Part shown: positions 2,578 to 34,592 of the stretch, in pieces | Position numbering within the stretch: position 1 is the first letter of the stretch | How the letters are laid out: each line of letters begins with the position of its first letter | Source: Candidatus Poribacteria bacterium | GTDB taxonomy: Bacteria; Poribacteria; WGA-4E; WGA-3G | NCBI GenBank assembly: GCA_963663765.2 | Contig: CAXXUA010000011.1 | Location: 117,491 to 181,490, forward strand | Reading direction: 5' to 3' | DNA length: 64,000 nucleotides | Made by a program: the position numbers and the translations under genes | The notes under the pieces: generated by a model | What the model was told of the DNA's origin: nothing | What the model saw: the letters and a program-made list of their open reading frames with translations, nothing else | Databases searched by the model: none

Positions 2578-2647
2578 CTATGATGTCGCGAGTTGCTGAA
2601 ATACTTACAGTCTCTTCCTATTTTGGTATTTACTTTGTGTTTGTTGC

Positions 2648-3649
2648 CTAAACCCATCCATCCTCAATCATCAGGGTTAATGGGGACTCCATCTCTTCCA
2701 TTGGTAATCTTACGCGTTGCCTTTTCCGTGATGATTCATATATTGCCATGAGTAGTTCCAACGTTGCATAACCTTCATAACCACTTGAACGGTGTTCTCT
2801 ATCTTCTTCAACGGTTTCTATCATGTCACGAACAGGGTTGCTACCAGATGGTAATTCTGGAGACACCCATTCTCCATTGGATTCTGAGTTACGAATACGA
2901 ATCCCAGGACCACCCGGTGCAGCAAGTTCAAGTTCACCACCTGATCCATAACAGTATATGTGATGATAACCCGGTGCTGTATCGTTCCCAGATTCAATAA
3001 TTCCTCTTACGTTATCTTCAAACTTAAAATATCCAATTGCAAAGTCTTCAGAGTGTAAATCGTATTTTGTTGGTGTGCCGATTCTTTCAATCTGTCCTAT
3101 AACCCAACTGACTGGCTTATCACCATAGACATACAACATAAGGTCGACTGTATGTGTAGCGTTATCCTTTAGGTCTCCACCACCACATATTCCGTGAATG
3201 CGGTAAATTTCACCTATCGCACCGTCTGCAATCATCTGTCGTGCATGTTGGTAGGGAGTGCTAAAGCGTACTTGATGGTCAATTGCAAGTTTCACACCAT
3301 GTTGTTTACATGCTTCAAGCATTGATTTTGCTTGTCCAAGGTTTTCTGCCATCGGTTTTTCAGATAAAATACCCTTGACCCTTCGTTTAGCAGTTTCAAC
3401 CACAATCGGTGCATGGTGTTTCGGGCGCGTACACACTGAAACCAGATCAATCTCTTCGTTTTCAAGCATGTCAACGTAATCAGTGTATTTTTTCTCTACG
3501 TTATGCCTTTCACCGAACGAGTTTAATCGTTCTTCGTCAAGGTCAGCAATTGCTATAATATTAGTTCTCGGTTCGTTCACATACCATCCTGCATGCATAT
3601 GTGAAATACCACCGCAACCGACTATTGCAACGTTGTAGTTTTTATCCAT
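2648..3649 (-). CDS. Gfo/Idh/MocA oxidoreductase
   Basis: VGCGGIS Rossmann motif, EKPMA, DNATH. Confidence 0.9.
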   Translation of the reverse strand: MDKNYNVAIVGCGGISHMHAGWYVNEPRTNIIAIADLDEERLNSFGERHNVEKKYTDYVDMLENEEIDLVSVCTRPKHHAPIVVETAKRRVKGILSEKPMAENLGQAKSMLEACKQHGVKLAIDHQVRFSTPYQHARQMIADGAIGEIYRIHGICGGGDLKDNATHTVDLMLYVYGDKPVSWVIGQIERIGTPTKYDLHSEDFAIGYFKFEDNVRGIIESGNDTAPGYHHIYCYGSGGELELAAPGGPGIRIRNSESNGEWVSPELPSGSNPVRDMIETVEEDREHRSSGYEGYATLELLMAIYESSRKRQRVRLPMEEMESPLTLMIEDGWV

Positions 3650-3666
3650 TCATATTCCTTTCATTA

Positions 3667-4494
3667 CTATAAGCCAGATTCGTTTATTTTATTGTAGATG
3701 TCAGTTCCCATGGTCACCAATTCCTCTCGAATTTCATCCCAATCATCTCGGTCATTTTTACCTTTGTTTAGGACAGGAAATTGAACTCTTATCTGCTTCG
3801 GAGAGTCGTTATAGTCATAGGTATAGTCAGATTCCGGAAATAATTCCATCACACCGTCTCTACGATCCAAAGGATTTTCTCCCTGGAAGTACAACTGAAT
3901 ATAACAACGTTGGTTGGAAACAAAAAGGCAGACACTAATATTGCGAATACTTTTCGGTATCCAACCATCATTACTAAGAGGAACGGGTCTTCCAGTAAAT
4001 AACTCACCAAACTTACCTTCTCGGATAGGAGCCCAAAACTCGCTATACCCAACTTCACCGTGTTTTTCAGTTTGAATATCTATTGCGGGGCGCGCAACAT
4101 GATGAAAAGAGAGTTCGTTGTGTGAATTTGCTTGTGCTTGAATCAGATACCAATTGACGTTACTATCTTCATTGCGTAGATTGCAGGTAACTATCATTAG
4201 TTCTTCAAAGTCTTCTGCAACTAAAACTGCTACATCAGCCTTCTTTAATCGTGCATAAGCTTCAAGTCTACCCCAATGATCCCAATCTGCTTTACCAAAT
4301 TGGTTTTCAATTACAAGTGTACCATCCTCTCCATCAGCAACAATATCTGCTCTTCGTGTGCCGACATTGGCTTCTGTTTCTGGGTCTTCAAAATCACCGA
4401 CGTTAAGTGCGTCAAGAGTATTGGCAAGATCCGCTGAGAATTCCTCTTCACGGTTATATATCTCGGATAGTGGTTTTGTTTTTTGTAGGTTCAT
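3667..4494 (-). CDS. DUF4268-like protein with PD-(D/E)xK-like N-terminal domain
   Basis: EEEFS...RADIVA...LVIENQFGKADWDHWG; C-terminal YSEFW domain. Confidence 0.7.
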   Translation of the reverse strand: MNLQKTKPLSEIYNREEEFSADLANTLDALNVGDFEDPETEANVGTRRADIVADGEDGTLVIENQFGKADWDHWGRLEAYARLKKADVAVLVAEDFEELMIVTCNLRNEDSNVNWYLIQAQANSHNELSFHHVARPAIDIQTEKHGEVGYSEFWAPIREGKFGELFTGRPVPLSNDGWIPKSIRNISVCLFVSNQRCYIQLYFQGENPLDRRDGVMELFPESDYTYDYNDSPKQIRVQFPVLNKGKNDRDDWDEIREELVTMGTDIYNKINESGL

Positions 4495-4517
4495 TTGAGT
4501 TTCCCATACAATACTTG

Positions 4518-4754
4518 TTATCGTTCGTGATGAATATTTAGGTGTTTAGTGTCGTCCATGACTTTTAATACGAATCTTAATGCTTCATTAACGACTTTTT
4601 CGTTCGGAAAAGCTGCGGCAACATCTGGATCAAGTTTGATAATATTTGTACCGGCAGTGTATTGCTCAGCATATTTTCCACGGATACCGTTTTTTAGCAA
4701 CGTTTCATCGTATTCAGGACGCAATTCGTCATTAAGATCGGATTTGTTATCCAT
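4518..4754 (-). CDS. BrnA-like antitoxin
   Basis: DELRPEYD...GIRGKYA...KLDPDVAAAFP...VNEALR; ATG at 4754 overlaps the brnT stop. Confidence 0.8.
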   Translation of the reverse strand: MDNKSDLNDELRPEYDETLLKNGIRGKYAEQYTAGTNIIKLDPDVAAAFPNEKVVNEALRFVLKVMDDTKHLNIHHER

Positions 4755-5019
4755 TTTCGTATATTCTCCGTTCTCTGAGTGTAGTTTTACGAGCATTGAT
4801 AATTCGGATTCGCTGCCCGCGATCTGTATGAGAAATAATTAATAACCTTCTTTGAATTGACTCACCAATTGTAATGTTTCTACTCTCATCATGTGAATGA
4901 TCTGGATCAAAAAATGTAAGGGACAAAGGATCCGCAAATACAGTTGATGCTTCGTGAAAAGATACATTATGTTTAGAAAAATTATTTGCTGCTTTGTTAG
5001 GGTCCCATTCAAATTCCAT
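4747..5019 (-). CDS. brnT: BrnT family toxin
   Basis: MEFEWDPNKAANNFSKHNVSFHEA...HS.DESR...IRIINARK. Confidence 0.9.
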   Translation of the reverse strand: MEFEWDPNKAANNFSKHNVSFHEASTVFADPLSLTFFDPDHSHDESRNITIGESIQRRLLIISHTDRGQRIRIINARKTTLRERRIYENG

Positions 5020-5070
5020 AATGTCAACTTAGAACCGGCTTGACAATGTTTTTTGAACACTCATGTTCAA

Positions 5071-5220
5071 TCATCGCTTCAGTAACTTGGCTATTTCCAC
5101 GTCATAGTTGTCATAGATACTTATTTCAGGACTTTCCCAATATTCTGCAATAGTTGAAAAGCGCTGGCGTAAATCTGCTGCTTAAACTTCGCCAATACCA
5201 CATTCATTGAATCTGCCCTC
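5071..5220 (-). pseudogene. Remnant of a small antitoxin-like gene
   Basis: Frame reads GIGEV*AADLRQRFSTIAEYWESPEISIYDNYDVEIAKLLKR*; internal TAA and no start codon. Confidence 0.45.
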
Positions 5221-8200
5221 CTAAAAATCCAAACTCACTCCCACCATCATCAATCGCGGTGAACTCCATGAAGCTGGACTTGTATGTTTCTGTGCAGACA
5301 ATGGAATACCATACCTATCATAGGTAACTTCATCAATCAGATCATATAGGTTTTTTGTGTTGAAGATGTTACGAATATCCGCGAAGAAGGTATAGGTTAT
5401 TCCTCTGATTTTACTCCGTTTGCTAATAAGTGCATCAACATTGTAGGTTGCAGGGTAACGTTTGGAGTTCACTGCAGGTTTGATGGGTGCACGGGGATTT
5501 GGTGTGTAGGGCAAGCCACTTGCATATCTTCCAACTAAGTTCACAGCAGAGGTAAAGGGTAACTGAATATCCAAGGTTGCAGATACAATATGACGTTGAT
5601 CCCAATCTAACGGATGACTTTCGGTCACTTCCGGTTGAGAACGATATGCAGTTAGATATCCCAATGCACGACTGGAACCCTTACCTTTGGCAACAGAATA
5701 GGTATAACTCAGCATCCCAGAGACAGGACTATTTCCTGTTCGCCACTTTCGGATAGCAAGTTCAAAACCCTGAACGCGTCCATATATATCATTGATGAAA
5801 TAACTATAATCGTTATTTATCCCTACGTATACACTACTGACAAGGTTGTTTATATCCTTTGTAAAACCAGTGATGTCAACTGTTAAGTCGTCCGTGAACT
5901 GTTGAATGATACCAACTTCATAAGCAATAGTTTTTTCCGGTTCAAGATCAGGATTCCCTCGTCTTCGGATTGCGCCGCGCATGTCAAAACTAAGATTTTC
6001 ATAGAGATCGTCACCTCTCGGTATTTGATAATAGTGTCCATAGGTGAAGTGCAATTTCGTCTGGTCAGTTATTGGAAAGGAAATACCAAGACGAGGTGCG
6101 ATCATGTGTTTGATAGAGGCATTAACTGGTTCATTGATGATAGGTAATCCAGATTTGATAAGTTTATCTTCACGTGCAAAGGAATCAAAGAGATCAGTCA
6201 GGTAGTCTGGTAGTTCGTCTCTTTTAACTTCTTCACCGGAACTTGTGACGAGTTGAACTTTACCGTCTTCACTTCTTTCGTGTCTGATTGTTTTGATTGT
6301 GCCATCATCATTCAGTTCAAGTGGGTCCTCTGGGTTTTTAGGTGAGATACCATCTGGATCATAACGGTCATACCGTAATCCGATATTGACAATCATACCA
6401 GAATACTCCATTTTATCTTGAGCATATAAACTGAGTGAAGATGGCGTGACATCATAATACTCCATATATAAGTTTGAACTACCATAGTTCGTAGTGCCAA
6501 GATAGTAGAGATGGTTTGTGGAAAATTCAATTCCAGTCTGAATTTGGTGATTTTCCGTAATTTGACTTGCATAATTCCCTTTGAATATTGATGTTGTGGA
6601 ATTGCGATCAATCCAAGAGTTGTTATCTCCTGCGACAAAATAAGTTGAATCGTTATATGCCTGCTGGGCTGGGTTCCTAATTCTTCCTTCTATTTGATTC
6701 TGCATAAAAACAGCTATTGCTGGATCGGGATACTGTTCAGCAATTACGGGGTCGACAGTAATCTCAGGATCCCAAGCATTTTCATCAAACTCTTTATTAA
6801 GCGGTTCCCAAACTTTACCGGGTTGATGACTGCTATAGGAACGGTGGAATTGTCCAAAAGTCAGTGTATAAAATGTACCTGAGTTAATATTGTGTGAAAG
6901 TTGAACAGAAAGACTACGTCCATCTCTATTATCTACCTCAATCGCGTTTGGGACGAACCGCAAACTACCACCATATCTATTGATTTCCCGGACATCGTAG
7001 AGCCCACTTGCTGTGAGTTTGACTTTAGGGGTAATCTCATACTTGAGTTTTCCCTGTAACGTGTGTCCTCCGCTACCACTATTGGGTAGATAACTTTCAT
7101 CGCGACGCAACTGACTGGCGAAGGAGAACGTTAAGCGATTGTCCCATATTGGACCACTAAGTGCGAATTCTCCTATATGACTCGGTGATAAACCATAGTC
7201 TTTATTATCATTAAACAATCCACTGTACTCCTCCAAATCCACTATGTAACCATCAAATAATGTAACCTGTTTTTTCTCGTAGTCAATAATAGTACCATCA
7301 GCACCTTTGAAGGGTTGTCGGTCCATAATGATTTCACCTGTATCAGGATCAACCATGTGTTCACCAGTTTCTTGATCGGTTACTGGTTGTAGCGGATTTA
7401 CTGTTCTATCTATATATACACCCGGATAGATCTCCGTGAAGACAATCTTTTCATCACCTTCAAGATTTTCTAAGTCTTCTACAGTAAGTTGACTTAGTTC
7501 GGCATCACGATAGGGTTTCTGATATTCATAGGGTTTTCCTAAGAATACACCTCTAAAAGGTTCAAGTGCAATCGGACGAAAGTCGTTGTCTGGGTCAAAC
7601 CAAGCTCCATAGACAGGGTCACCATGATGCTGTCCCCATTGACCTACCCTATACCTGAAACTCCCCTTAAATTTGTTTGTACCAACTTTAGTGATTAGAT
7701 TGATGATACCGGATTGTGCATCACCGTGTTCGGCATTGAATCCACCAGTAATCACTTCCATCTGCTCAAGTGCATTTGTGCTAATTTGCAATCCCAGTCC
7801 TCTAAATATTGGATCATTTACTGGAATCCCATCAATTAGATATTTTGTCTCCATTGACCTTCCACCGCGTATATGTAGTGAACCAGATGAATTTAGGACA
7901 GCAATTCCAGCTTGTGTTTGAAGAATACCGTTTACGGTATCACGCGGCATTGAAGAAATCTCATCCTTTTCAATTATCCGAGTCGTTTGTGTAACATCTT
8001 TTTTGATAAGCGGTTTGGTTGCTGTTACAGTTACACCTTCCAGTTCAACAACTTCAGATGCTTCTAAAGAAAAGTTTACTGTTGTAGTTAAGCCTGCAAA
8101 TACTTTGGATTCTGTTATTGTCTTTGAACGGTAGCCGGTGATTTCAACTTGTATATCATAATCACCAGGAGAGATGTTGGTCATAACGAAATAACCGGAT

Positions 8201-8400
8201 TCGTTTGTTGTGGTAGTCGTGCTTGAGTCAACAATTGTAACTGTTGCATTTGCAATAGGTTCTTTTGTGGCTTCAGCAGTGACGATACCGGATATCTTGC
8301 CTGTAGTCGCAGCATGCATACTTTGTATGAAGATGAAGTTGGTAAAGGTGAAAATACTCAAAATAATCAACCAAATTTTGAAGATATTATCTACTTTCAT
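5221..8400 (-). CDS. TonB-dependent receptor with N-terminal carboxypeptidase-regulatory-like domain
   Basis: TTGKISG; plug HIRGGR...YLIDG; GGFNAEHGDAQSGIIN; APRLGISFPIT; GNPDLEPEKT; C-terminal F. Confidence 0.93.
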   Translation of the reverse strand: MKVDNIFKIWLIILSIFTFTNFIFIQSMHAATTGKISGIVTAEATKEPIANATVTIVDSSTTTTTNESGYFVMTNISPGDYDIQVEITGYRSKTITESKVFAGLTTTVNFSLEASEVVELEGVTVTATKPLIKKDVTQTTRIIEKDEISSMPRDTVNGILQTQAGIAVLNSSGSLHIRGGRSMETKYLIDGIPVNDPIFRGLGLQISTNALEQMEVITGGFNAEHGDAQSGIINLITKVGTNKFKGSFRYRVGQWGQHHGDPVYGAWFDPDNDFRPIALEPFRGVFLGKPYEYQKPYRDAELSQLTVEDLENLEGDEKIVFTEIYPGVYIDRTVNPLQPVTDQETGEHMVDPDTGEIIMDRQPFKGADGTIIDYEKKQVTLFDGYIVDLEEYSGLFNDNKDYGLSPSHIGEFALSGPIWDNRLTFSFASQLRRDESYLPNSGSGGHTLQGKLKYEITPKVKLTASGLYDVREINRYGGSLRFVPNAIEVDNRDGRSLSVQLSHNINSGTFYTLTFGQFHRSYSSHQPGKVWEPLNKEFDENAWDPEITVDPVIAEQYPDPAIAVFMQNQIEGRIRNPAQQAYNDSTYFVAGDNNSWIDRNSTTSIFKGNYASQITENHQIQTGIEFSTNHLYYLGTTNYGSSNLYMEYYDVTPSSLSLYAQDKMEYSGMIVNIGLRYDRYDPDGISPKNPEDPLELNDDGTIKTIRHERSEDGKVQLVTSSGEEVKRDELPDYLTDLFDSFAREDKLIKSGLPIINEPVNASIKHMIAPRLGISFPITDQTKLHFTYGHYYQIPRGDDLYENLSFDMRGAIRRRGNPDLEPEKTIAYEVGIIQQFTDDLTVDITGFTKDINNLVSSVYVGINNDYSYFINDIYGRVQGFELAIRKWRTGNSPVSGMLSYTYSVAKGKGSSRALGYLTAYRSQPEVTESHPLDWDQRHIVSATLDIQLPFTSAVNLVGRYASGLPYTPNPRAPIKPAVNSKRYPATYNVDALISKRSKIRGITYTFFADIRNIFNTKNLYDLIDEVTYDRYGIPLSAQKHTSPASWSSPRLMMVGVSLDF

Positions 8401-8460
8401 TTAAATACTCCTTATCTTCGTAGATATGATATAAGATCATATACGGATGTTTAGCAAATC

Positions 8461-9255
8461 TTAGACATCTAAAACACTTTCAATAAATTTGAGGCTTTTT
8501 AAGTTCCTTCCGGTATGGTATTTGATGAAACGACTAAGTATCATTTTGAGTTCAAAATGATTTTGGGTCGAAGCGCGTAAACTCTTTAATTTATGCAACT
8601 CAATTTTTCTAAGTGTTTTTAACAATTCAGAACTTCCGGGTGATATTGTGAACGCAGATGGATCTCTGGAATTGCAGTTATCACATAGCATTCCGCCGGT
8701 TAAAACACTGAAGTAAAGTATGGGGGTTTGAGTTGTTGATTGAGATGACTTCTGAATGAAGGACGGAGTTATATCTGTTCCACAATTTGCACATATGGAA
8801 AGTTGTGGTGCGAATCCTGAAAGGTCAAGAAACTTAATTTCAAAATACCGTGCAAGTAATGACACATCATGTATATCTTCTAACAATTGGAATGAATTGC
8901 GAAGGAGGGCAAATATCTCAGAGTTCGCATCCCCTTCTGAAGCGACAGCATCAACCAATTCAGCTAAATAGCAACCGTACGAAATACGCGCAAAATCTGT
9001 ACGTATACCGTCAAAACCTTCAATAAGTTCAAATCCTGAAAGGCTTTGTAAATCTCTATTTTCACGATAATTAAAAAGAAGCATACCGTGATTAAGTAGT
9101 TCTAAACTTCCGCTAAGTTTATTCTTTGGACTTTTTATACCATAAGCTACGGCTTTAATTTTCCCGAAATCGGTCGTATAAAAAGTGATGATTTTGTCAG
9201 CTTCACGTATGGGAAAAGCACGCAATACAATAGCTGCAGTTTTTTGAGTTGGCAT
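8461..9255 (-). CDS. recO: DNA repair protein RecO
   Basis: AIVLR...EADKIITFYT..FGKI; CxxC...CxxC zinc finger; LKSL C-terminus. Confidence 0.95.
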   Translation of the reverse strand: MPTQKTAAIVLRAFPIREADKIITFYTTDFGKIKAVAYGIKSPKNKLSGSLELLNHGMLLFNYRENRDLQSLSGFELIEGFDGIRTDFARISYGCYLAELVDAVASEGDANSEIFALLRNSFQLLEDIHDVSLLARYFEIKFLDLSGFAPQLSICANCGTDITPSFIQKSSQSTTQTPILYFSVLTGGMLCDNCNSRDPSAFTISPGSSELLKTLRKIELHKLKSLRASTQNHFELKMILSRFIKYHTGRNLKSLKFIESVLDV

Positions 9256-20226: not shown

Positions 20227-21312
20227 CTATATTTCAGGAACTTTCACTGCAACCTCTTTTTTCATCTTATGTGAACGGAAGATACCATCCATTATCACAT
20301 TCGTAAGCAGAACACCCTCGGGTGGTATAGGTGACGGTGCATCTGCTTTGATGGCTTCACGGAAGGCAATCATCTGTGCTGCCCAGTTATCTTCATTAGG
20401 GAAACCAGAAAAGCGAATAGTTGTCATGCCTTCAGGTGGATTCGGTTCTGCAGTTAATCCCTCTGATTCAACAAATTTCTTGAGTTCACCAGCATAAGCA
20501 TCTGCAAAAACAACCGGTCCGTCCAATGAAATCCCTGCTTTTCTACCGAGATGAAAATTGCCACCAAGTGAATCTGCATGCACTGCCCAAGAAATTTTAA
20601 ATACCATGACGCCACCATTGTCAAACCGAACCCATGCTACACTGAACTCTTCTACATCCATCTTGTCGCGAAATCTTGGATCCTGCATTGAAATGTAGTC
20701 CTCGGTTATCGCAGAGACACGAACAGGCTTCGGATAACCCATCGCAAATAGCGATCTATGCATATTGTAGACACCAATATCAACAGTTGCACCCGCACCA
20801 GCTGTCTTTTTATAAATGAATGTATGTCCGGGATTTCCACGACGCCTACAGCCAGCGGACTCAGAGTAATAGATATCACCGAGTAAGCCTTCGTCATATA
20901 ACTTTCTGGCAAATTGAAGCCTCGGACTAAATGTGGGATTGAGACCAATTTGTAAGATTTTACCTGTTGCTTTAGCGGCACGAACCATCGCTGTTGCATC
21001 AGGAAGTGTCGCTGCCATCGGTTTTTCACAGAGAACATGTTTACCTGCATTCAATGCTGCTACCGTCGGTCGCCGATGTCCCTGATTGTAAGTGGTGACA
21101 CTCACGGCATCAAGTTCATCCATTTCAAGCATCTTGTTGTAACTTGTAAATGCATTCTTTTTTGGTACACCCCATTCTTCTGCGGCTTGGTTGGCTTTAC
21201 TCTTGATGATGTCACACACGGCAACAATCTCAAAACCGCCTACTTTCTCATAGGTACCCCGGTGTGCTCGTGAAATACCACCTGTACCAATAATACCTAC
21301 TTTTACTGCCAT
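20227..21312 (-). CDS. Gfo/Idh/MocA oxidoreductase (tandem copy 2)
   Basis: IGTGGIS, CEKPMA; highly similar to 21431-22516. Confidence 0.93.
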   Translation of the reverse strand: MAVKVGIIGTGGISRAHRGTYEKVGGFEIVAVCDIIKSKANQAAEEWGVPKKNAFTSYNKMLEMDELDAVSVTTYNQGHRRPTVAALNAGKHVLCEKPMAATLPDATAMVRAAKATGKILQIGLNPTFSPRLQFARKLYDEGLLGDIYYSESAGCRRRGNPGHTFIYKKTAGAGATVDIGVYNMHRSLFAMGYPKPVRVSAITEDYISMQDPRFRDKMDVEEFSVAWVRFDNGGVMVFKISWAVHADSLGGNFHLGRKAGISLDGPVVFADAYAGELKKFVESEGLTAEPNPPEGMTTIRFSGFPNEDNWAAQMIAFREAIKADAPSPIPPEGVLLTNVIMDGIFRSHKMKKEVAVKVPEI

Positions 21313-21430: not shown

Positions 21431-22516
21431 CTAAAGCTCAGGAACCTTCACTGCTACCTCTTTCTTTGTCTTATGAGAACGGAAAATTCCATCCATTATT
21501 ACATTCGTTAGAAGCACACCTTCTGGTGGAAGTGGAGATGGACGATCTGCTAAAACTGCATCACGAAAAGCAGTCATTTGTGCATTCCAAACATCAACTT
21601 TCGGCAATCCTGCAAAACGGATTGTTGTCATACCTTCTGGGGGTTCTGGTATCGCTGTGAGTCCTTCAGATTCCACCAGTTTCTGTAATTCTTTACTATA
21701 GGAGTCAGCATACACGGTCGGTCCACTAAACGAGATACCCGCTTTTTTTCCAAGACAGAAACTACCACCAAGTGAGTTCTGATGCACTGCCCAGGATATC
21801 TTAAAGACCATCACACCACCGTTTTCAAAACGAACCCACGCAGCACCGAATTCTTCTACATCCATTTTGTCTTTGAATCTCGGATCTTGTAATGAGATGT
21901 AATCTTCAGTAATCGCAGACACACGCACAGGTTTCGGATAACCCATCACATACAAGGAGTTGTGTAAGTTGTAGATACCGATGTCAACGATGGCACCCGC
22001 TCCGGCTGTCTTCTTGTAGATAAACGTCCTTCCCGGTGTTCCGCGACGTCTACAATTAGCAGATTCAGAATAGTATATATCACCGAGAATGCCTTCATCA
22101 ACGATTTTTTTAGACAATTGATTGGATGGTGAGAAAGCACTTTTCACGCCAATCTGTAGTATTTTACCAGATGCTTTCGCGGCGCGTACCATCGCGGTTG
22201 CATCAGCAAGTGTTGCTGCCATCGGTTTCTCACAGAATACATGCTTACCTGCGTTCAATGCAGCAACCGTCGGACGTCGATGTGCCTGATTATAGGTGCA
22301 AACACTCACCGTGTCAATCTCATCCATCTCCAACATCTTGTTGTAACTTGTGAATACATTCTTTTTTGGAACACCCCAGTTTTCTGCTGCCTGAAGTGCC
22401 TTTTCCCGGAATATGTCACACACAGCCACAATCTCAAACCCATCAACACTTGTATAGGCTCTATGGTGTGCACGTGAAATACCTCCCGTCCCAACAATCC
22501 CAACGCGTATTGCCAT
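21431..22516 (-). CDS. Gfo/Idh/MocA oxidoreductase (tandem copy 1)
   Basis: VGTGGIS, CEKPMA; same 361-aa length as its neighbour. Confidence 0.93.
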   Translation of the reverse strand: MAIRVGIVGTGGISRAHHRAYTSVDGFEIVAVCDIFREKALQAAENWGVPKKNVFTSYNKMLEMDEIDTVSVCTYNQAHRRPTVAALNAGKHVFCEKPMAATLADATAMVRAAKASGKILQIGVKSAFSPSNQLSKKIVDEGILGDIYYSESANCRRRGTPGRTFIYKKTAGAGAIVDIGIYNLHNSLYVMGYPKPVRVSAITEDYISLQDPRFKDKMDVEEFGAAWVRFENGGVMVFKISWAVHQNSLGGSFCLGKKAGISFSGPTVYADSYSKELQKLVESEGLTAIPEPPEGMTTIRFAGLPKVDVWNAQMTAFRDAVLADRPSPLPPEGVLLTNVIMDGIFRSHKTKKEVAVKVPEL

Positions 22517-22616
22517 ATCGTTATCTCCTTATGTGAAATGCAATTGTATTGATGCATTAGTTTAGACGATATTCAGTTGGAAATGCAAGGAAAAAATATG
22601 ATATAATAAAGGAGTA

Positions 22617-22738
22617 CAGGACTTACGTAAAAAAGGTAGGCGTGCTTTGTAAGCGCGCTGGAAACCCATAAAAACGCTGATAATTGCATCATTTTCAACA
22701 TAATTTTTGATTAAATCAAGAAAACTGCGTAAGTCCTG
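22617..22738. mobile_element. 122-bp CAGGACTTACG-type MITE with 6-bp TSD
   Basis: TIRs CAGGACTTACG/CGTAAGTCCTG; GGAGTA on both sides (22611-22616, 22739-22744); carries REP arm GTAGGCGTGCTTTGTAAGCGCGC. Confidence 0.9.
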
Positions 22739-22774
22739 GGAGTATATTCTATCCGATGATAGAAGGAGGGCATC

Positions 22775-24589
22775 ATGAGTATTAATGCAGACAAAATACG
22801 ACTTTCACAAGTGCATACACTGACAAAAATGCGGCGTAAGTTAAAGTTAAACGAAATGGTCACTGTATACCAGGAATATGAAGACAAAGAAGAACATAGT
22901 AAACGTTACATCTATTGTGCTCTGATTCCGTCATCTCAAATTCAGGAATCGCTTGCTCACTCAGATTCGGATTTGACTTCTTATCGTGGCATACCTGGTG
23001 GGGTAACCTACCATAAACAAGGTGAATTGCATCGCGAATACCTACGCTACGGTGTTGATAACGGCGTTGAACCCTTGATTATCAATAGAAACTTTTATAG
23101 ATTGTGGGAAGAATACAATGAAATATCTGAAGAATTCCGTCTGTTTCATAATCTCTATCACGACCAAAAAACGAATCAATACCTCAAAATAGATGATGTT
23201 GGAAATGAAGAAGTCGTAGCAATGGTCACACCAGATCACATACAGATTCGGCTCAAAGAAATTCGTCAATTTTTAGCTATCAAGGAGATGCACCTCGCGA
23301 TTCAATTCGTTTTTCATCAAAATTCAATATATTCATTGGAGGAACTGGAATTGCAAGCTGGTGAAGATAACAAACGGGATGGACTTATGTGCTGGCTGCA
23401 CCGCTATGGTGATCTCACTGGCATTGGGAACTGTCAGACTTTTAGTTATTTGGTCGGGAAACGACTTCTTGAACCCCTGCCAAAAGCAAAAAGCGGTTTT
23501 TGGCCCTTCGCTGAGGAAACAGATGTAAAATATGAGGAATTTATTATTGATGTTGATGAAGATGGAGAAGAAATTCTATACACTTCTAACCCGGATGAAC
23601 TGAAAACACCTGCCGACCCAGAGAATATTCGTGGAGTGGATAATGATGCACCAAGTTATCTAACTCCCATCCATTTCAGTAAGAAGGTGTTAGGAAAATA
23701 TTACCATGAACCAAGAAAATACAGTGTAGAGGATTCAATTTTGAGATGTGGGAGTTTGTGGGGTGTCTTTATTGACAATCATCATGAAGACAGAGTTTGT
23801 GCGTGGTTAGGTGATCTTGGACACGATCTTCCATACAGCGAACAGCAACATTGGCGACAACACAATATTTCACCAACAGGTGGGATAAACAAAACTTTTT
23901 TTGATCGTCAGTTAGGTACCCAGTTCACAGATTCAGATATGCCTGAAAATATCTTTAAACAACGTTATCGTGATTTACAAAAGGCAAGTCAAGAAGAGCT
24001 TGCCGAGCAATGGTTGTTACCACTTAGCACTGCAGATACATATCTCCTTGAATGCCTGAGAATTCCCGCTACTGATGAACATCGCCATTTTGATGAATTG
24101 GTTTTGAGTCTGACAAAGATACTAATTGATTCTCTTAACGAAGCATATTTGAAAAAGATGATTCCTTTTAGGAAACGACTGGAATATAAAGAGAAAAGAG
24201 GCATTGCACTACTTGAAGCTGCTTTACATTTGAATAAAATTAAAGGAACAAACGGGCATGTTGATTTTTTCAGAAAACTCCAGAGTCTTCGTTCAAGTGG
24301 TAGTGAACATCGGAATGGAAGTAAATACGAAAAAATTGCGAAGCACTTCGGAATAGAGAACCAAAATCTAAGTGGTGTTTTTACTGAAATTCTCAATAGC
24401 GCAACTAAAGTTCTTAATTTTTTTATTATGCTTGTGAAAAGTGGACAAATCCGTGAAATAGTTGAAAAAAATCAGATGGCAGCAGGATATGCTGTTATGG
24501 GTGAGATGATTGGAATTACCAATTCTGGTTCAACTGATGGTTCTGTCAATCACGATAATTTTATATTTGAAGAGCAATCTAAAACATGA
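22775..24589 (+). CDS. Uncharacterised protein with C-terminal HEPN-like motif and antitoxin-like tail
   Basis: 604-aa ORF with AGGAGG RBS; LQSLRSSGSEHR (R-x5-H); tail GEMIGITNSGSTDGSVNHDNFIF. Confidence 0.7.
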   Translation: MSINADKIRLSQVHTLTKMRRKLKLNEMVTVYQEYEDKEEHSKRYIYCALIPSSQIQESLAHSDSDLTSYRGIPGGVTYHKQGELHREYLRYGVDNGVEPLIINRNFYRLWEEYNEISEEFRLFHNLYHDQKTNQYLKIDDVGNEEVVAMVTPDHIQIRLKEIRQFLAIKEMHLAIQFVFHQNSIYSLEELELQAGEDNKRDGLMCWLHRYGDLTGIGNCQTFSYLVGKRLLEPLPKAKSGFWPFAEETDVKYEEFIIDVDEDGEEILYTSNPDELKTPADPENIRGVDNDAPSYLTPIHFSKKVLGKYYHEPRKYSVEDSILRCGSLWGVFIDNHHEDRVCAWLGDLGHDLPYSEQQHWRQHNISPTGGINKTFFDRQLGTQFTDSDMPENIFKQRYRDLQKASQEELAEQWLLPLSTADTYLLECLRIPATDEHRHFDELVLSLTKILIDSLNEAYLKKMIPFRKRLEYKEKRGIALLEAALHLNKIKGTNGHVDFFRKLQSLRSSGSEHRNGSKYEKIAKHFGIENQNLSGVFTEILNSATKVLNFFIMLVKSGQIREIVEKNQMAAGYAVMGEMIGITNSGSTDGSVNHDNFIFEEQSKT

Positions 24590-25101
24590 TTTTTGTTGAT
24601 ACAGGTGCTTGGATTGCTCTATTAAATCAGAGGGATCAATACCATCATGATGCTGTAGTTGTGTTTAACAAGTTGCAACTACATCGGATGCGATTACTTA
24701 CTACAGATTATGTGATTGACGAAACCGTTACTCGCTTTAGATACGATACGAACCACACACTTACTGTTGAATTCTTGAACCGTATTGAACTTCTGGAAGA
24801 AACAGAATTTTTAACCATTGCAGAAATCGATAAAAATGTATTTGAGGCAGTAAAATCACTTTTCCGACAGTATGACTCAGTACAACTATCCTTTACAGAT
24901 TGCACCAGTTTTGTAATTTGCCGTGTTCATAAAATTTCAGAGGCATTTGCGTTTGACCACCATTTTCCAATAATGGGAATTATAGTGGATTTTAGAATTA
25001 TTTTTACACTTTCAGGTGTAGGAGGGAACTCCGATTCCCGACTATATTCTGTGTATTGTAGGAGGGAACTCCGATTCCCGACTATATTCTGTGTAATGTA
25101 G
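24586..25101 (+). CDS. vapC: PIN-domain VapC toxin (C-terminus altered by a MITE insertion after about codon 132)
   Basis: IFVDTGAWIAL, TTDYVIDET, LSFTDCTSF, AFAFDHHF; ATGA overlap with the upstream gene. Confidence 0.9.
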   Translation: MIFVDTGAWIALLNQRDQYHHDAVVVFNKLQLHRMRLLTTDYVIDETVTRFRYDTNHTLTVEFLNRIELLEETEFLTIAEIDKNVFEAVKSLFRQYDSVQLSFTDCTSFVICRVHKISEAFAFDHHFPIMGIIVDFRIIFTLSGVGGNSDSRLYSVYCRRELRFPTIFCVM

Positions 25102-25675
25102 GAGGGAACTCCGATTCCCGACTATATTCTGTGTAATGTAGGAGGGAACTCCGATTCCCGACTATATTCTGTGTATTGTAGGAGGGAACTCCGATTCCCG
25201 ACTATATTCTGTGTATTGTAGGAGGGAACTCCGATTCCCGACAATATTCTGTGTATTGTAGGAGGGAACTCCGATTCCCGACTATATTCTGTGTAATGTA
25301 GGAGGGAACTCCGATTCCCGACTATATTCTGTGTATTGTAGGAGGGAACTCCGATTCCCGACTATATTCTGTGTATTGTAGGAGGGAACTCCGATTCCCG
25401 ACTATATTCTGTGTATTGTAGGAGGGAACTCCGATTCCCGACTATATTCTGCGTAATGTAGGAGGGAACTCCGATTCCCGACTATATTCTGTGTATTGTA
25501 GGAGGGAACTCCGATTCCCGACTATATTCTGTGTAATGTAGGAGGGAACTCCGATTCCCGACAATATTCTGTGTATTGTAGGAGGGAACTCCGATTCCCG
25601 ACTATCAACGCGTTCAGTCACGATTCGGAGATCGCTCCTATAGAAAAAGTGTAAACTTAATTGTATATTTCACTA
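24983..25675. mobile_element. TA-flanked MITE enclosing a 40-bp tandem array
   Basis: Imperfect ~29-bp TIRs TAGTGGATTTTAGAATTATTTTTACACTT / AAGTGTAAACTTAATTGTATATTTCACTA with TA on each side. Confidence 0.8.
25017..25605. repeat. 15 x 40-bp tandem array of a REP left arm
   Basis: GGAGGGAACT recurs every 40 bp from 25021 to 25581; unit TGTAGGAGGGAACTCCGATTCCCGACTATATTCTGTGTA(T/A); single complementary arm at ~25617-25642. Confidence 0.97.
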
Positions 25676-25747: not shown

Positions 25748-26698
25748 TTACCGTTTAAACATTTTCTCACGATGCCATGCTAAAGCACTTTGATCAGGAC
25801 ACAGTTCTTTTTGCTCTGGTAATAGTATTGTTTTACCATTCAATGTTTTTAACATCCATTCTGTTGGTCCCCGTTCAGTCATTAGTTCTGAAACAATAAT
25901 TTTAAACGACTCGTCTATTGAAAACAGGTATCTATCAAAAGCCCAATGATGCAATTTACATAGAGAAATTCCATTCCGAACATCGTCATTATTTGATTTA
26001 TTGAATGGAATTATGTGAGCAGCCTCAGTAACACTTTCTCCATTCAATGTTATAATCTGCAACTTGCAGACTGCACAAGTATAGTCGTAAATTCTCATGA
26101 TTGTGCGGCGAAAACCAGGTTCCCGAATCTTTTTTTCACTTTCGATTGGTTCCTCAAGTTTTGTTGAGAAATCATGTTGAACATAATCCAATAGTTCCTT
26201 GCTATAACCACTAATCTGTTGTTCTTCTGAAATAACACTTTGGATTTCATTTGTTAAATTGAGGAAATACTTGTCAATGAGAGTTTTCCTTAATATCTCT
26301 CTTTCTAAAGGTTGAATTAGTAGAGTAAATAGTTCTTCATCAAGACTTGCATGTGATATCATCTTTCGTAGTTTAGGAAAAGTCTTTATTTGAGAAACAA
26401 CTTCTAATGCTTTTTCATAACCAGGATTTGGGTGATGATGCCAGAAACTGCGACTCTTTAGGTGGAAGAATGGTAGAGCAGGATTTGGTTTTCTATTTGT
26501 GATGCAATTCCAATACTTTAGAAATTTCTCAACCAAATGGGGCGATGGAGGGATTTTGTTAATTTCAATCTGTTCTTGCTCAATCATTTCAATAATTGTT
26601 AACAAGAGTACTGGCTGATGTGGTGCATTACCATGCGCCCTATCTATTCGTAATTTCCTAAACTCATTGATGTATTTTCTCAGGCTATCTTCATTCAT
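25748..26698 (-). CDS. SBD-HNH endonuclease (ScoMcrA-like, putative phosphorothioate-dependent type IV restriction enzyme)
   Basis: N-terminal APHQPVLLL...PFFHL; C-terminal FRR..MRIYDYTCAVC...EAAHIIP...DDVRNGISLCKLHHWAFD. Confidence 0.85.
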   Translation of the reverse strand: MNEDSLRKYINEFRKLRIDRAHGNAPHQPVLLLTIIEMIEQEQIEINKIPPSPHLVEKFLKYWNCITNRKPNPALPFFHLKSRSFWHHHPNPGYEKALEVVSQIKTFPKLRKMISHASLDEELFTLLIQPLEREILRKTLIDKYFLNLTNEIQSVISEEQQISGYSKELLDYVQHDFSTKLEEPIESEKKIREPGFRRTIMRIYDYTCAVCKLQIITLNGESVTEAAHIIPFNKSNNDDVRNGISLCKLHHWAFDRYLFSIDESFKIIVSELMTERGPTEWMLKTLNGKTILLPEQKELCPDQSALAWHREKMFKR

Positions 26699-26739: not shown

Positions 26740-29250
26740 CTATTTCCGCAGCAGCATTTTCCTAGTCGCAGTGAAATCTCCTGCAGACAAGGTATAATAA
26801 TACAAACCACTTGCAACTGACTCACCGCTATTATTACGACCGTTCCAATATGCAGCACGGCTTCGCCTATAATACGTACCAGCAGGTTGATGTCCCAAAT
26901 CTAAAGTTCGGATCAGGTTGCCACGCACATCGTATATGGTAATCACAGCATCAGCAGGTGCAGTTAGTTGATACGGAATCCAAGTCTCTGGATTGAAGGG
27001 GTTCGGGTAGTTTTTCAACAGACGGGTTTCAAAAGGCATCGCAGCTGCAAGGAGATTTTCAAGATAAGCAATTCCGTTAACGATAGTAGCATCCTTATTA
27101 GGTAATTGCCTTGCTTGATTTATCCAAGCTTGTATCGTCTTATCGTTGAAAGTGTTTATGTTTTGTGAATAGGTAGGCGCAGCATTTGCTTCAGAATTAA
27201 TCTCATTTACGACAATTAATAGATCTATAATATTCACAACACCATCACCATTGACATCAGGATTTGGATTGACATTTTCAGTTATTGTTTCACCAAAGTT
27301 AGCAGCAACCAACACAAGATCAGTCGTATCGACCTTACCATCTCCATTGATGTCGGCGCGGTTTTGTTCAGAAGGAAATTCACCTGCTTTTAGTAAAATC
27401 TCTTGACGGGAGATATTACCATATACATCTATTGTCTGAAGTTGAATGGTATTTGTGGGAAGTGATGTGAGTGAACCGATGTCAAATGTAACAGCAGTAC
27501 TCAATGCGTCAATTCGTTGACAACTATGTAATTTAATCCCGGCAGCTGGGTCGGAATCTGTAGTTGGAACAAATAACTGAACTTGGTGTATACCGTCAAA
27601 ATCAGTTATCTGAAATATGATAGAATAATCTGTTGCATTTAATGGATATGTTTCTGAAGTGAGCATTTGAATTGTCGTCGGATCATTGAAAGAGATATCT
27701 TCAGTATTAAAAAAGCGACTAACACTCAACCATTCTGTAGCACAGTCTGAGAATCGGTCGGCTTCTGAACCGTAAGACATGATGTAGCTTTCATCACGAA
27801 AATCGTGTTCCAAACCGAATGCATGTCCAAGTTCGTGTGCTGTGACAATTGTTCCAACCTTACCATCAAAACACTTCCCCGATGCGGGAACAATCGCATA
27901 GCCTCCCTGTGATTTAACCTGATGACCTAAACCATGCCAGTTACTACCGCCTACGCCACACACAGCGTCATGTTCAAGAACCTGCGTACTCACCTCAGTC
28001 ACGATGAGATAGACATGTTTATCTAAATCAAACAATGCATCAATTTCATTGCTAATCTTTTTAGTTGTATGAGTATGGTAATAGTTGTCGTTGAAGTTTC
28101 CATTGACTTTATGAACAATCGTCTGCTCGTTTTCATCTTTTTCAATTGAAAATGTTAATCTATCATACCCATCTGCTTCCATTTGGTCAGCGTATAAGGT
28201 TTGAACATCTTTGATCAAGCGATTAAGTTTTGTCCACATGTCGGTTTGGCTACTTCGATCGCGAGGAACAAAATAGATTATTCGCAACATTGGTTTTTCA
28301 CCCGATTGATATGATGTAACATCCCATAAACGTAAGGTGCCATCGCTTCCTCCGCTTGTGAGTGAAGTTCCTTCTGGAGAAAACGCAGTAGCGTTAACCC
28401 ATCCAGTATGACCTCTAAGCGTAACTAAGTTTTCACCATTGTTAAGTGACCAGAGATTTACTTCTTCATAATCCACGCTTACAAGTTTGCTGCTGTCAGG
28501 AGAAAAACTTAGGTCTGTGACTGTAGAAGAGGTCGGTAAAGTTCCAATAAGTTCCCAATTAGATACTCGCCATAACTTAACATCACCGTGAAATCCTGTA
28601 CTAGCGAGCATTTTGTTATCTGGTGAAAATTCCATTGAAGTTATATAGTTAGAATCACCACGATACTGTATGATTTCTTGCTGATTTTGTAGATTAATAA
28701 TTATTATCTGTCCATCGGCATCACCAATTGCCAATAACTTTCCATCATACGAAAATGCTAAAGCAATAATCCATTTGGAATGTCTGATTGTCCTAATTTC
28801 TCGCAAAGTGTGAATATCCCACAACTTTAGATGCCACCCAGCAGAGGCAAACATTTGACCATCTGAAGAAAAACTTACTGCTTTGACCTGTGCACGGACA
28901 CGGTCTGTAATATGTGATAGTGTCGTTAGTCTTCGCTTGTTGGTAACATTCCAAACTACTATTGTATAGTCATCACTACCACTCACAAGACGAGTGCCAT
29001 TAGGGGAAAAAGCTAATGAATTGATTGTATTTTTATGACTCCCTAAAGTGTCAACTCTACCATCCGCTAAATCCCATATTTTGACGGTGTTATTTCCTCC
29101 AGCACTGGCAATTAATGAGGAATTGACAGGTGAGTAGGCAACTGCATTGACACTTCCACCATGCGTTAATGTGGTATGTTCTTGTGAATTTGCAGTAAGT
29201 GATAAGAAGATTAAAAATGTGATTGAAACAAAAATGTATTTGTTAAACAT
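26740..29250 (-). CDS. Secreted WD40-repeat zinc metalloprotease with dockerin and FlgD/T9SS-like C-terminal domain
   Basis: Signal peptide; WD40 repeats; HELGHAFGLEH with IMSY Met-turn; DINGDG/DVNGDG; NYPNPFNPETWIPY...WNGRN..GE.VASG.Y.Y. Confidence 0.9.
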   Translation of the reverse strand: MFNKYIFVSITFLIFLSLTANSQEHTTLTHGGSVNAVAYSPVNSSLIASAGGNNTVKIWDLADGRVDTLGSHKNTINSLAFSPNGTRLVSGSDDYTIVVWNVTNKRRLTTLSHITDRVRAQVKAVSFSSDGQMFASAGWHLKLWDIHTLREIRTIRHSKWIIALAFSYDGKLLAIGDADGQIIIINLQNQQEIIQYRGDSNYITSMEFSPDNKMLASTGFHGDVKLWRVSNWELIGTLPTSSTVTDLSFSPDSSKLVSVDYEEVNLWSLNNGENLVTLRGHTGWVNATAFSPEGTSLTSGGSDGTLRLWDVTSYQSGEKPMLRIIYFVPRDRSSQTDMWTKLNRLIKDVQTLYADQMEADGYDRLTFSIEKDENEQTIVHKVNGNFNDNYYHTHTTKKISNEIDALFDLDKHVYLIVTEVSTQVLEHDAVCGVGGSNWHGLGHQVKSQGGYAIVPASGKCFDGKVGTIVTAHELGHAFGLEHDFRDESYIMSYGSEADRFSDCATEWLSVSRFFNTEDISFNDPTTIQMLTSETYPLNATDYSIIFQITDFDGIHQVQLFVPTTDSDPAAGIKLHSCQRIDALSTAVTFDIGSLTSLPTNTIQLQTIDVYGNISRQEILLKAGEFPSEQNRADINGDGKVDTTDLVLVAANFGETITENVNPNPDVNGDGVVNIIDLLIVVNEINSEANAAPTYSQNINTFNDKTIQAWINQARQLPNKDATIVNGIAYLENLLAAAMPFETRLLKNYPNPFNPETWIPYQLTAPADAVITIYDVRGNLIRTLDLGHQPAGTYYRRSRAAYWNGRNNSGESVASGLYYYTLSAGDFTATRKMLLRK

Positions 29251-33985: not shown

Positions 33986-34592
33986 TAGTGTTGAGTCAAC
34001 ATACTCTTGTTGGTCGAGATTCGTAGATCGCTCCTACAGAAGTCTTGTGTATTGTGTGTATTGTGTGTATTGTAGGAGGGAACTCCGATTCCCGACTATA
34101 TTTTAGACGCATCAATAAACACGTGACTAAGCACTGGTGTTGAGTCAACATACTCTTGTTGGTCGAGATTCGTAGATCGCTCCTACAGAAGTCTTGTGTA
34201 TTGTGTGTATTGTGTGTATTGTGTGTATTGTAGGAGGGAACTCCGATTCCCGACTATATTTTAGACGCATCAATAAACACGTGACTAAGCACTGGTGTTG
34301 AGTCAACATACTCTTGTTGGTCGAGATTCGTAGATCGCTCCTACAGAAGTCTTGTGTATTGTGTGTATTGTGTGTATTGTAGGAGGGAACTCCGATTCCC
34401 GACTATATTTTAGACGCATCAATAAACACGTGACTAAGCACTGGTGTTGAGTCAACATACTCTTGTTGGTCGAGATTCGTAGATCGCTCCTACAGAAGTC
34501 TTGTGTATTGTGTGTATTGTGTGTATTGTAGGAGGGAACTCCGATTCCCGACTATATTTTAGACCCATCAATAAACACTTGACTAAGCACTA
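33986..34592. repeat. 4 tandem ~149-bp MITE-like units with back-to-back REP arms and a 9-bp microsatellite
   Basis: Units at 33988, 34137, 34295, 34444; unit 2 has one extra TGTGTATTG; outer ends TAGTGTTGAGTCAA/TTGACTAAGCACTA. Confidence 0.95.

Follow-up and report, generated by a model that had tools for sequence, protein, structure and literature searches.

We examined a 64,000-nucleotide stretch of a Candidatus Poribacteria genome (assembly GCA_963663765.2, contig CAXXUA010000011.1, positions 117,491 to 181,490 of the forward strand; hereafter the window), with emphasis on a two-gene unit located at 22775..25101. The first gene of this unit encodes a 604-residue protein of an unnamed family that ends in a tail resembling the C-terminal motif of VapB antitoxins, and it overlaps a second gene for a VapC-type toxin of the PIN-domain family. 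Our key finding is that the tail and the PIN gene are inherited together. The reading we favor, held at roughly even confidence, is that the family core is an autonomous abortive-infection protein associated with restriction-modification (R-M) systems, and that a clade of Poribacteria captured VapC by means of its antitoxin peptide. The arrangement suggests how a toxin–antitoxin (TA) pair gets wired onto a probable anti-phage protein.

The antitoxin-like tail and the PIN gene

The large gene spans 22775..24589 (+) as a single open reading frame (ORF) of 604 amino acids (aa), consisting of a core that belongs to an unannotated family and a C-terminal, antitoxin-like tail (residues 557-604, 24443..24586, +), with the end of the protein reading ...GEMIGITNSGSTDGSVNHDNFIFEEQSKT. 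The PIN ORF starts at 24586 (+), in a 4-base ATGA overlap in which the TG is common to the TGA stop of the large gene and the ATG start of the PIN gene (...ACATGATT...), and the ORF listing holds no ORF of at least 50 aa between the two genes. The core also contains the string LRSSGSEHR at residues 505-513, i.e., an arginine and a histidine in the arrangement R506-x5-H512. On all of these points—the 604-aa ORF with its R-x5-H and tail, the ATGA overlap and the lack of a separate small antitoxin—the ORF listing and the junction sequence agree with an initial annotation of this DNA, which had also placed the end of the PIN gene near 24982; the ORF in the window instead stops at 25101 (171 aa).

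Judged by its catalytic residues and its profile match to a solved VapC, the product of the PIN gene (24586..25101, +) looks like an active toxin. It matches Pfam PF01850 with an E value of 8.8e-10 (score 39.7, with a cut-off of 23.6), and residues D5, E46, D105 and D124—the acidic positions that the initial annotation had described as kept—are the same in all 24 aligned relatives. A profile of the window PIN and 23 relatives matches VapC20 of M. tuberculosis (5wzf_A) at E 3.7e-13, a toxin that presumably targets 23S rRNA, going by the PDB molecule name of 5wzf. Scored against the NCBIfam VapC equivalog model, the window PIN reaches 19.9, below the cut-off of 80. At E <= 1e-5, the PIN has matches in 95 of the phylum's 176 genomes. 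The PIN proteins of the relatives are 136 aa long, compared with 171 aa in the window, where the sequence diverges after ...ATGGGAATT and the last four codons plus the stop are replaced. The window ORF is longer because its normal end has given way to sequence that runs into a tandem array of a 40-bp repeat (25017..25605, +; 14.7 copies with 97% matches according to Tandem Repeats Finder), which abuts and lengthens the PIN ORF, such that the PIN core extends to about 24981 and the last 39 codons form an aberrant extension.

The co-inheritance of the tail and the PIN gene is evident at several levels. Across the phylum, the tail-coding frame ends at the PIN start in all 30 loci of the best PIN matches. 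A cross-table set 99 of the 124 rows of large-protein matches against the 67 rows of the close PIN family, with more distant PIN rows omitted: among 65 tail-bearing matches, 46 have an intact adjacent PIN, 11 a degraded PIN and 8 no PIN, and all 34 tail-less matches are without a PIN, none of them having an intact or a degraded copy. The 25 rows left out of this comparison comprise N-terminal or middle fragments and six tail-less C-terminal fragments, none of which lies near a PIN by inspection. Three intact close PINs lack a recognizable adjacent tail. One of them (G007) starts 107 nt from a contig end; a second (G066, locus L053) has a decayed upstream region; and the third (G023, L139), which has N instead of D124, is preceded by a 282-aa protein that has a hydrophobic, membrane-type N-terminus and, at its other end, the first half of the tail. 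In the genome collection, which holds six large-gene loci (five of them in Poribacteria), a 136-aa PIN overlaps the large-gene stop in four of the five Poribacteria loci. One Poribacteria locus (L004) has the tail and no PIN, and a Desulfovibrio homologue (L006; 543 aa, 40% identity) has neither. The tail is present in 13 of the 14 close homologues of an alignment, and the fusion followed by a PIN was also found in three metagenome loci (L058, L097 and L104).

Recurrence in other genomes was the check proposed in the initial annotation, and the 46 intact tail-plus-PIN pairs in the phylum bear it out. The same annotation had offered a chance gene fusion as its alternative. The recurrence of the fusion in many genomes rules out a chance or assembly-specific event, and contigs from two separate studies are identical to the window over 24487-25006, the position at which the contig coverage stops. 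Because these contigs cover both the tail/PIN junction and the missing PIN stop without any difference, both features are real in the population. It is thus extremely improbable that the window genome alone carries a chance fusion, a frameshift or an assembly artefact here: nothing was found in its favor beyond the altered 3' end of the PIN gene at the repeat array, and against it stand the 46 pairs, the four Poribacteria loci, the three metagenome loci and the contigs of the two studies.

We also observed that the tail behaves as a unit of its own. The 30 best PIN loci comprise 19 long forms, 7 forms reduced to the C-domain, 3 stubs and 1 protein with an unrelated N-terminus. One of the long forms (L008) shows an in-frame loss of about residues 249-354, the seven deletion forms join the first few to about 25 residues to residues ~390-604, and the three stubs (L009, L025 and L035) join an N-terminal piece of 10-25 residues directly to the tail. 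The remaining locus (L028) carries the same tail on a 76-aa protein, the N-terminus of which is unrelated. At least five distinct deletion junctions occur, and the start, the tail and the PIN are retained in every one of them—a pattern that would follow from an active PIN toxin with the tail as its antidote. In two further loci (L054 and L055; G065:C8 and G068:C1), proteins of 363-365 aa start at about residue 255, without the N-terminal domain, and keep the tail upstream of a PIN at 48-49% identity.

Small antitoxins, located by walking upstream of PIN homologues, display a related C-terminus. The ORFs upstream of 16 PINs at 30-39% identity are 78-126 aa long, and in 14 of them the C-terminus is HD-x-x-L/I, mostly in the form ..S.NHD.YLYG, in keeping with the C-terminal motif that the initial annotation had ascribed to small antitoxins preceding such PINs. 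The heads of these ORFs match RHH, MazE/AbrB, DUF2281 or AF2212-like families, or nothing; the Pfam cut-off itself is reached only in L046 (Antitox_RHH and RHH_3) and L050 (RHH_1), with the other head matches being weaker. Since the deletions keep the tail and the small antitoxins share its HD-x-x-L/I end, the tail looks like a VapB-type C-terminal motif and a portable neutralizing peptide, which would bind and neutralize VapC. Antitoxin tails are typically disordered alone and fold on their partner, and the predicted disorder of the tail fits this behavior: in the AlphaFold2 model, residues 558-583 form a helix and residues 589-604, within the ...IGxxxSGxTDxSVNHDxxIY end, have a predicted local distance difference test score (pLDDT) below 50. 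A search of PDB sequences with the 49-aa tail gave no match at E <= 10, and a word-indexed search for short tail-carrying proteins recovered only two fragments of the same family. Moreover, a DNA-binding head of the RHH, AbrB/SpoVT, Phd or helix-turn-helix type is absent from the 604-aa protein, as judged from Pfam scans, 40 homologues and the structural model.

The loss of the large-protein body from loci that keep the tail and the PIN also speaks for selfish addiction only, an explanation that we consider somewhat unlikely on balance. According to this explanation, VapC and its tethered VapB peptide have settled at the 3' end of a pre-existing gene and merely prevent the loss of the locus, and VapC has neither a role in phage defence nor any link to sensing by the large protein. 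Beyond the deletion series, it would account for the 19 of 65 tail-bearing matches in which the PIN is decayed or lost and the large gene stays, for the occurrence of the tail on unrelated N-terminal partners (L028 and L139) and for the fact that the family mostly does without tail and PIN. What argues against addiction only is the persistence of the full-length fusion, with an intact R-x5-H in all 19 long forms, in three families of the phylum. Addiction and defence are compatible, and the present data do not separate them.

The core family and its genomic setting

The core of the large protein belongs to a widespread family. A word-indexed search with the large protein returned 1720 homologues, the best 120 of which are mostly 585-609 aa long, and an exhaustive search gave 1789 representative clusters (50% identity), 1209 of them at E <= 1e-10. 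Nearly all of the best 150 of the 1789 representatives measure 530-565 aa and align to residues 1-555, with two reaching the tail. The family ranges from Poribacteria to plasmids of Pseudomonas, Rhodococcus and Streptomyces; a tblastn search of phage records with the large protein gave no matches. No model of Pfam, NCBIfam, PADLOC v2.0.0 or PHROGs matches the window protein, 40 diverse homologues yielded no meaningful Pfam or PADLOC match, and the ESM Atlas neighbors of the large protein are unnamed clusters. The window genome itself carries a tail-less paralogue (569 aa, 53% identity) on contig C4. In a tree obtained by a quick search only and rooted at the midpoint, all 15 tail-bearing sequences fall within one supported clade of 22 that includes 7 tail-less sequences. 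Because the starred branches of this quick tree force at least two changes, the tail appears to have arisen on one or a few occasions, with some later losses.

Additionally, four Poribacteria variants of 776-790 aa (G131, G157, G088 and L142, the last at G093:C1, 816-3161) have a helical C-terminal extension of ~220 aa in place of the tail, and proteins of the family seem to acquire additional modules at their C-terminal end. That TA toxins have multidomain relatives in defence contexts is a known theme. In the literature searched, neither the core family nor a VapB tail on such a protein is described, with the proviso that the supplementary lists of 10.1101/2024.01.29.577857 might name the family.

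The genomic setting of the family links it to defence. Of 80 metagenome loci taken, the gene was called in 75, and 50 of these are tail-less with at least 1.2 kb of upstream sequence. The gene hsdS (Methylase_S) sits at position -1 in 20 of these 50 loci, and also in two loci with shorter upstream sequence; hsdR is found at +1 in four loci, and a homologous large ORF lies at most two genes downstream in seven. Other immediate neighbors include Eco57I-like, Mrr, SAVED-HNH (three loci), AAA_13, HEPN_Cthe2314, DUF3800 and FRG proteins as well as transposases. A type ISP enzyme is the immediate neighbor of the tail-plus-PIN form in L104, and the 781-aa Poribacteria variant of L142 follows an hsdS fragment. 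Genes embedded in type I R-M loci have been argued, and in part shown, to be defence genes (10.1101/2024.01.29.577857), and PrrC is the classic latent RNase located between hsdS and hsdR (PMC1484252; 10.1101/2024.01.29.577857). On the P. syringae plasmid pPma4326F, a homologue at 34% identity occupies the first cargo position behind gmtY-VPA1269-gmtX. The cargo of such GMT islands is described as rich in defence systems (10.1101/2023.03.28.534373). The main text of that paper, which treats the GAPS systems of GMT islands, does not contain the accession of the P. syringae homologue.

The tail-less paralogue of the window genome (L138, G000:C4:701500-717000, at 7015-8724) directly follows a CRISPR-like array at ~2287-6642, which extends over about 4.3 kb with the 30-nt repeat CTTCTAATCGAACCAATTTGGAATAGAAAC at a period of 65-68 nt. 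An Rfam scan of the ORF-free stretch beside the paralogue, which is this array, gave no match. Genes for a Uma2-family nuclease and a transposase also lie nearby. The embedding in type I R-M systems, the presence among the cargo of GMT islands and the proximity to CRISPR and phosphorothioate systems support a defence setting for the family as a whole, and to this extent the defence reading of the initial annotation is supported. In a separate observation, the Desulfovibrio homologue of L006 lies between a gene of the Hypoth_Ymh family on its upstream side and one for an ERF-family recombinase on its downstream side (3267-3989 and 5830-6801), which suggests a prophage or mobile-element setting.

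Within the window, the next gene downstream of the PIN (25748-26698, -) encodes a 316-aa HNH_2 protein that also matches PADLOC HNH models and aligns to the NCBIfam model for phosphorothioated DNA-binding restriction endonucleases at E 1.4e-38 (132.6 bits, with a cut-off of 180). This HNH gene occurs in L001 and not at the same place in L002 and L003, so that it is variable within a small island; L004 has DndC- and DndD-like genes in its place. Upstream of the unit lie two tandem paralogous genes for GFO/IDH/MocA oxidoreductases (20227-21312 and 21431-22516, -), divergent from the large gene, and downstream a gene for an 836-aa WD40-repeat protein (26740-29250, -). As the flanking genes are syntenic in L001-L003, the two-gene unit occupies a fixed chromosomal site in the genus. 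A Shine-Dalgarno-like AGGAGG, read from the sequence, is located at 22764..22769 (+), 5 nt 5' of the large-gene ATG, and a sigma-70-like site at 22578-22607 agrees with the consensus at 10 of 12 positions, which is a consensus match only.

The unit is bordered by repeats. The 25-nt hairpin-forming core of the array, GTAGGAGGGAACTCCGATTCCCGAC, has 295 copies on both strands of the genome, compared with none for a reversed control; the copies are single or arrayed, with periods of 40 and about 118-162 nt, and also occur at 34072-34552 of the window. The array reads like a genome-wide repeat akin to repetitive extragenic palindromes or miniature inverted-repeat transposable elements; in the window, it has taken the place of the normal 3' end of the PIN gene. 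In four sequencing runs, positions 22700-22738 and 24979-25060 show a very high contig depth, i.e., dispersed repeats at both ends of the unit. Some contigs link 22737/8 to 24979-81 within the high-depth repeat copies, and we read these joints as repeat-graph links and not as deletions; alternatively, they may reflect a population variant without the whole two-gene unit.

Predicted domains and the R-x5-H motif

The AlphaFold2 model of the whole protein (pLDDT 90.6, predicted template modeling score 0.81) comprises three domains upstream of the tail. To the N-terminal, beta-rich domain (residues 1-236, 22775..23482, +), a VIA-align fold search of 48,161 representative chains, with Z >= 8 as the mark, assigned a resemblance to the C-terminal sensor of Avs3: residues 1848-2076 of the SeAvs3-terminase structure (8dgc_A) align at Z 11.0, with a root-mean-square deviation of 3.5 Å over 167 aligned residues. 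This was the only chain of the 48,161 at Z >= 8; chain 8dgc_B likewise gives Z 11.0, and Foldseek places it 50th, with a probability of 0.93. Avs2 and Avs3 contact the terminase ATPase through a beta-rich sensor at their C-terminus (PMC13601566, section 7). Because they lie at the chain terminus, the matched residues would correspond to this sensor, and the modeled N-domain may accordingly sense a phage protein. Upx was considered as a relative and rejected, being described in PMC13601566 as a PD-(D/E)xK protein with another sensor. The middle alpha/beta domain (residues 237-387, 23483..23935, +), delimited by the secondary structure of the model and by conservation, contains an invariant D334 and a conserved IDNxHxDxVxxWLGDLG motif; fold searches with the whole model gave no match covering this domain alone.

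The C-terminal helical domain (residues 388-556, 23936..24442, +) probably has a HEPN fold. When this domain was folded alone (pLDDT 83.6), the best VIA-align rows were adenylosuccinate-lyase bundles at Z 7.7, and about 16 of the 50 best rows were chains of the HEPN superfamily, going by their entry titles, with Z scores of 4.8-7.0 and none at 8 or above. The HEPN-type matches comprise Roquin (4txa, Z 7.0), HepT (5yep_B, with 124 of 133 residues aligned, and 6m6u_G, both Z 6.2), a HEPN toxin complexed with MNT (7ae2_A) and a Cas nuclease (9fcv), both at Z 6.1, as well as HepS (9oik_A), an AMPylated HEPN toxin (8xdj) and MtlR (3brj_A), all at Z 6.0. Further down are YggD (3c8g_A, Z 5.9), the HEPN-domain protein AF_0298 (2hsb, Z 5.7), YutE (1ylm) and a Thermus thermophilus protein with no assigned function (1wwp), both at Z 5.4, HI0074 (1jog, Z 5.2), TT1696 (1ufb, Z 5.1) and RnlA (7aex_A, Z 4.8). 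Several of these rows cover nearly the whole of a small HEPN chain. In terms of language-model features, the nearest named Atlas clusters are all HEPN proteins of the RnlA/RNase LS type (0.75-0.81), which we treat as a lead only.

The candidate HEPN catalytic motif, R506-x5-H512 (RSSGSEH, 24290..24310, +), is distinguished by its conservation. Strings of the form R-x4-6-H occur four times in the protein, compared with 3.8 +/- 1.7 in shuffles, so their number is at chance; R506 and H512 are invariant in each of the homologue alignments (40 of 40, 46 of 46 and 14 of 14), and the other three strings are not conserved. Both residues are kept in all 19 PIN-linked long forms and in four of the seven N-terminally deleted forms, and the 363-365-aa proteins of L054 and L055 have lost one residue each (through an R-to-Q change in one protein and an H-to-N change in the other). 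This distribution—retention in the long forms and decay where the N-domain is lost—suggests that selection maintains the motif only when the protein is complete. The HEPN assignment of the initial annotation is accordingly no more than probable: the R-x5-H is invariant and HEPN chains are among the fold matches, with all of their Z scores below 8. On this basis, we infer that the C-domain may be a HEPN RNase.

The same fold evidence could also be accommodated by an arrangement with a single effector, which we rate as quite improbable. Here, the large protein would not be an RNase: its helical domain would be a scaffold or regulator, and VapC, freed once the N-terminal sensor binds a phage protein, would be the sole effector of the Poribacteria form, following the fused antitoxin-sensor logic of CapRel. 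The weakness of the fold evidence for a catalytic HEPN domain leans this way, as does the finding that non-nuclease members of the MtlR/YggD type score like toxins (3brj_A at 6.0 and 3c8g_A at 5.9), and the N-domain resembles a known sensor of phage proteins. However, about 99% of the family is without a PIN, judging from the two tail-bearing proteins among the 150 best representatives, and the core consequently needs an effector of its own. In addition, the invariance of R506 and H512 in 40 of 40 homologues fits a catalytic site better than a scaffold.

Proposed mechanism and comparison with known systems

According to the reading we favor, the core family (~550 aa) would be a single-protein abortive-infection device that normally works alone, inside or beside R-M and other defence loci. 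Its beta-rich N-domain, of the kind that binds terminase in Avs3, would be the sensor, as its fold implies, and the HEPN-type helical domain with the invariant R-x5-H would be the RNase effector. In the Poribacteria clade, a VapB toxin-neutralizing peptide would have been gained at the C-terminus, replacing a separate antitoxin gene, with the VapC20-like PIN gene translationally coupled to the large gene via the ATGA overlap. Bound to the tail in a stoichiometric complex, VapC would remain inactive. Depletion of the large protein by host shut-off or proteolysis, or its rearrangement on triggering, would then free VapC as a second RNase, and the toxin together with its tethered antitoxin would make the locus hard to lose.

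A stronger version takes the 550-aa family to be a STAND-free, stand-alone phage sensor of the Avs1-3 type that fires a HEPN RNase and mostly serves as a back-up within type I R-M operons, and the Poribacteria form to leash VapC as well by its tethered VapB peptide, making up a two-RNase abortive-infection switch. The trigger would be the terminase or another phage protein of the ATPase fold, and a single protein would be sensor, effector and antitoxin; taken as a whole, this combination of claims is unlikely.

Several observations weigh against the role proposed for the core and its tail. At the level of structure, the Avs3 match comes from a single entry at 10-13% identity, and the HEPN Z scores lie within the range of unrelated helical bundles. 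Foldseek searches of the PDB with the whole model or, as suggested in the initial annotation, the C-domain returned no match at E <= 0.001. Pfam scans of the protein and 40 homologues, together with profile searches of PDB sequences, likewise gave no HEPN match, the profile searches yielding chance-level matches only (PP2C at E 1.2 and a retroviral capsid at E 0.35). At the level of the locus, the window copy lies outside any type I R-M operon, and the C-terminus of its PIN has been rewritten by the repeat array, so that its function may be impaired. The PIN is also dispensable, being degraded or missing in 19 of 65 tail-bearing matches, which fits a selfish add-on no less than a second effector. 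Finally, the genomes counted are kin, mostly from three genera, such that the counts overstate independence.

These findings bear on several broader questions. A large family that is unnamed in Pfam, NCBIfam, PADLOC v2.0.0 and PHROGs sits where guilt by embedding predicts defence genes, and its combination of an Avs3-like sensor fold with a HEPN-like domain makes it a testable candidate for STAND-independent use of a terminase sensor. The Poribacteria clade offers a natural experiment on the wiring of TA modules onto other genes, with an antitoxin pared down to 48 residues at the end of a 555-aa host protein, plus a series of natural deletions in which just the start, the tail and the toxin are left. 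The clade thereby bears on whether the TA modules of defence islands are effectors, guards or addiction devices, and it supplies minimal constructs.

Among known systems, the Avs1-3 proteins (SeAvs3, 8dgc) share with the large protein the beta-rich fold, its N-terminal 236 residues superposing on the extreme C-terminal sensor. In contrast to Avs1-3, the large protein has no STAND NTPase (by Pfam), no TPR array and no Cap4-type nuclease, and its sensor-like domain is N-terminal, with 10-13% identity. The HepS protein of Gifsy-1, HepT-MntA and RnlA-RnlB resemble it in having a helical domain of similar size and topology with R-x(4-6)-H; they differ in that no HEPN match to the large protein exists at the sequence level (Pfam and PDB sequences), with Z scores in the range of unrelated bundles. 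Unlike in HepT-MntA and RnlA-RnlB, the antitoxin-like element would here neutralize the PIN and not the HEPN domain.

The likeness to PrrC and RloC lies at the family level, with hsdS directly upstream in 20 of 50 loci and hsdR downstream in four, and with a C-terminal, presumed HEPN-type domain in which an Arg and a His are conserved. By analogy, the family might also act as a latent RNase that backs up restriction, as described for PrrC (PMC1484252; 10.1101/2024.01.29.577857). The differences are that Pfam detects no AAA/ABC family in the protein or its homologues, the N-domain being beta-rich and Avs3-sensor-like instead; that PADLOC PrrC models give no sequence match to the large protein; and that the window copy, to which the tail and the PIN are added, is not part of a type I R-M operon. 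The two-gene unit is like VapBC in its PIN toxin with four acidic residues, in the upstream partner overlapping by four bases, and in the C-terminal motif of that partner, which is that of the small antitoxins of related PINs. Unlike VapB, a 555-aa three-domain protein here replaces the DNA-binding head (RHH, AbrB or Phd), which makes VapB-type autoregulation unlikely. We therefore class VapBC, together with R-M-embedded HEPN-type RNases such as PrrC, as the nearest known kinds.

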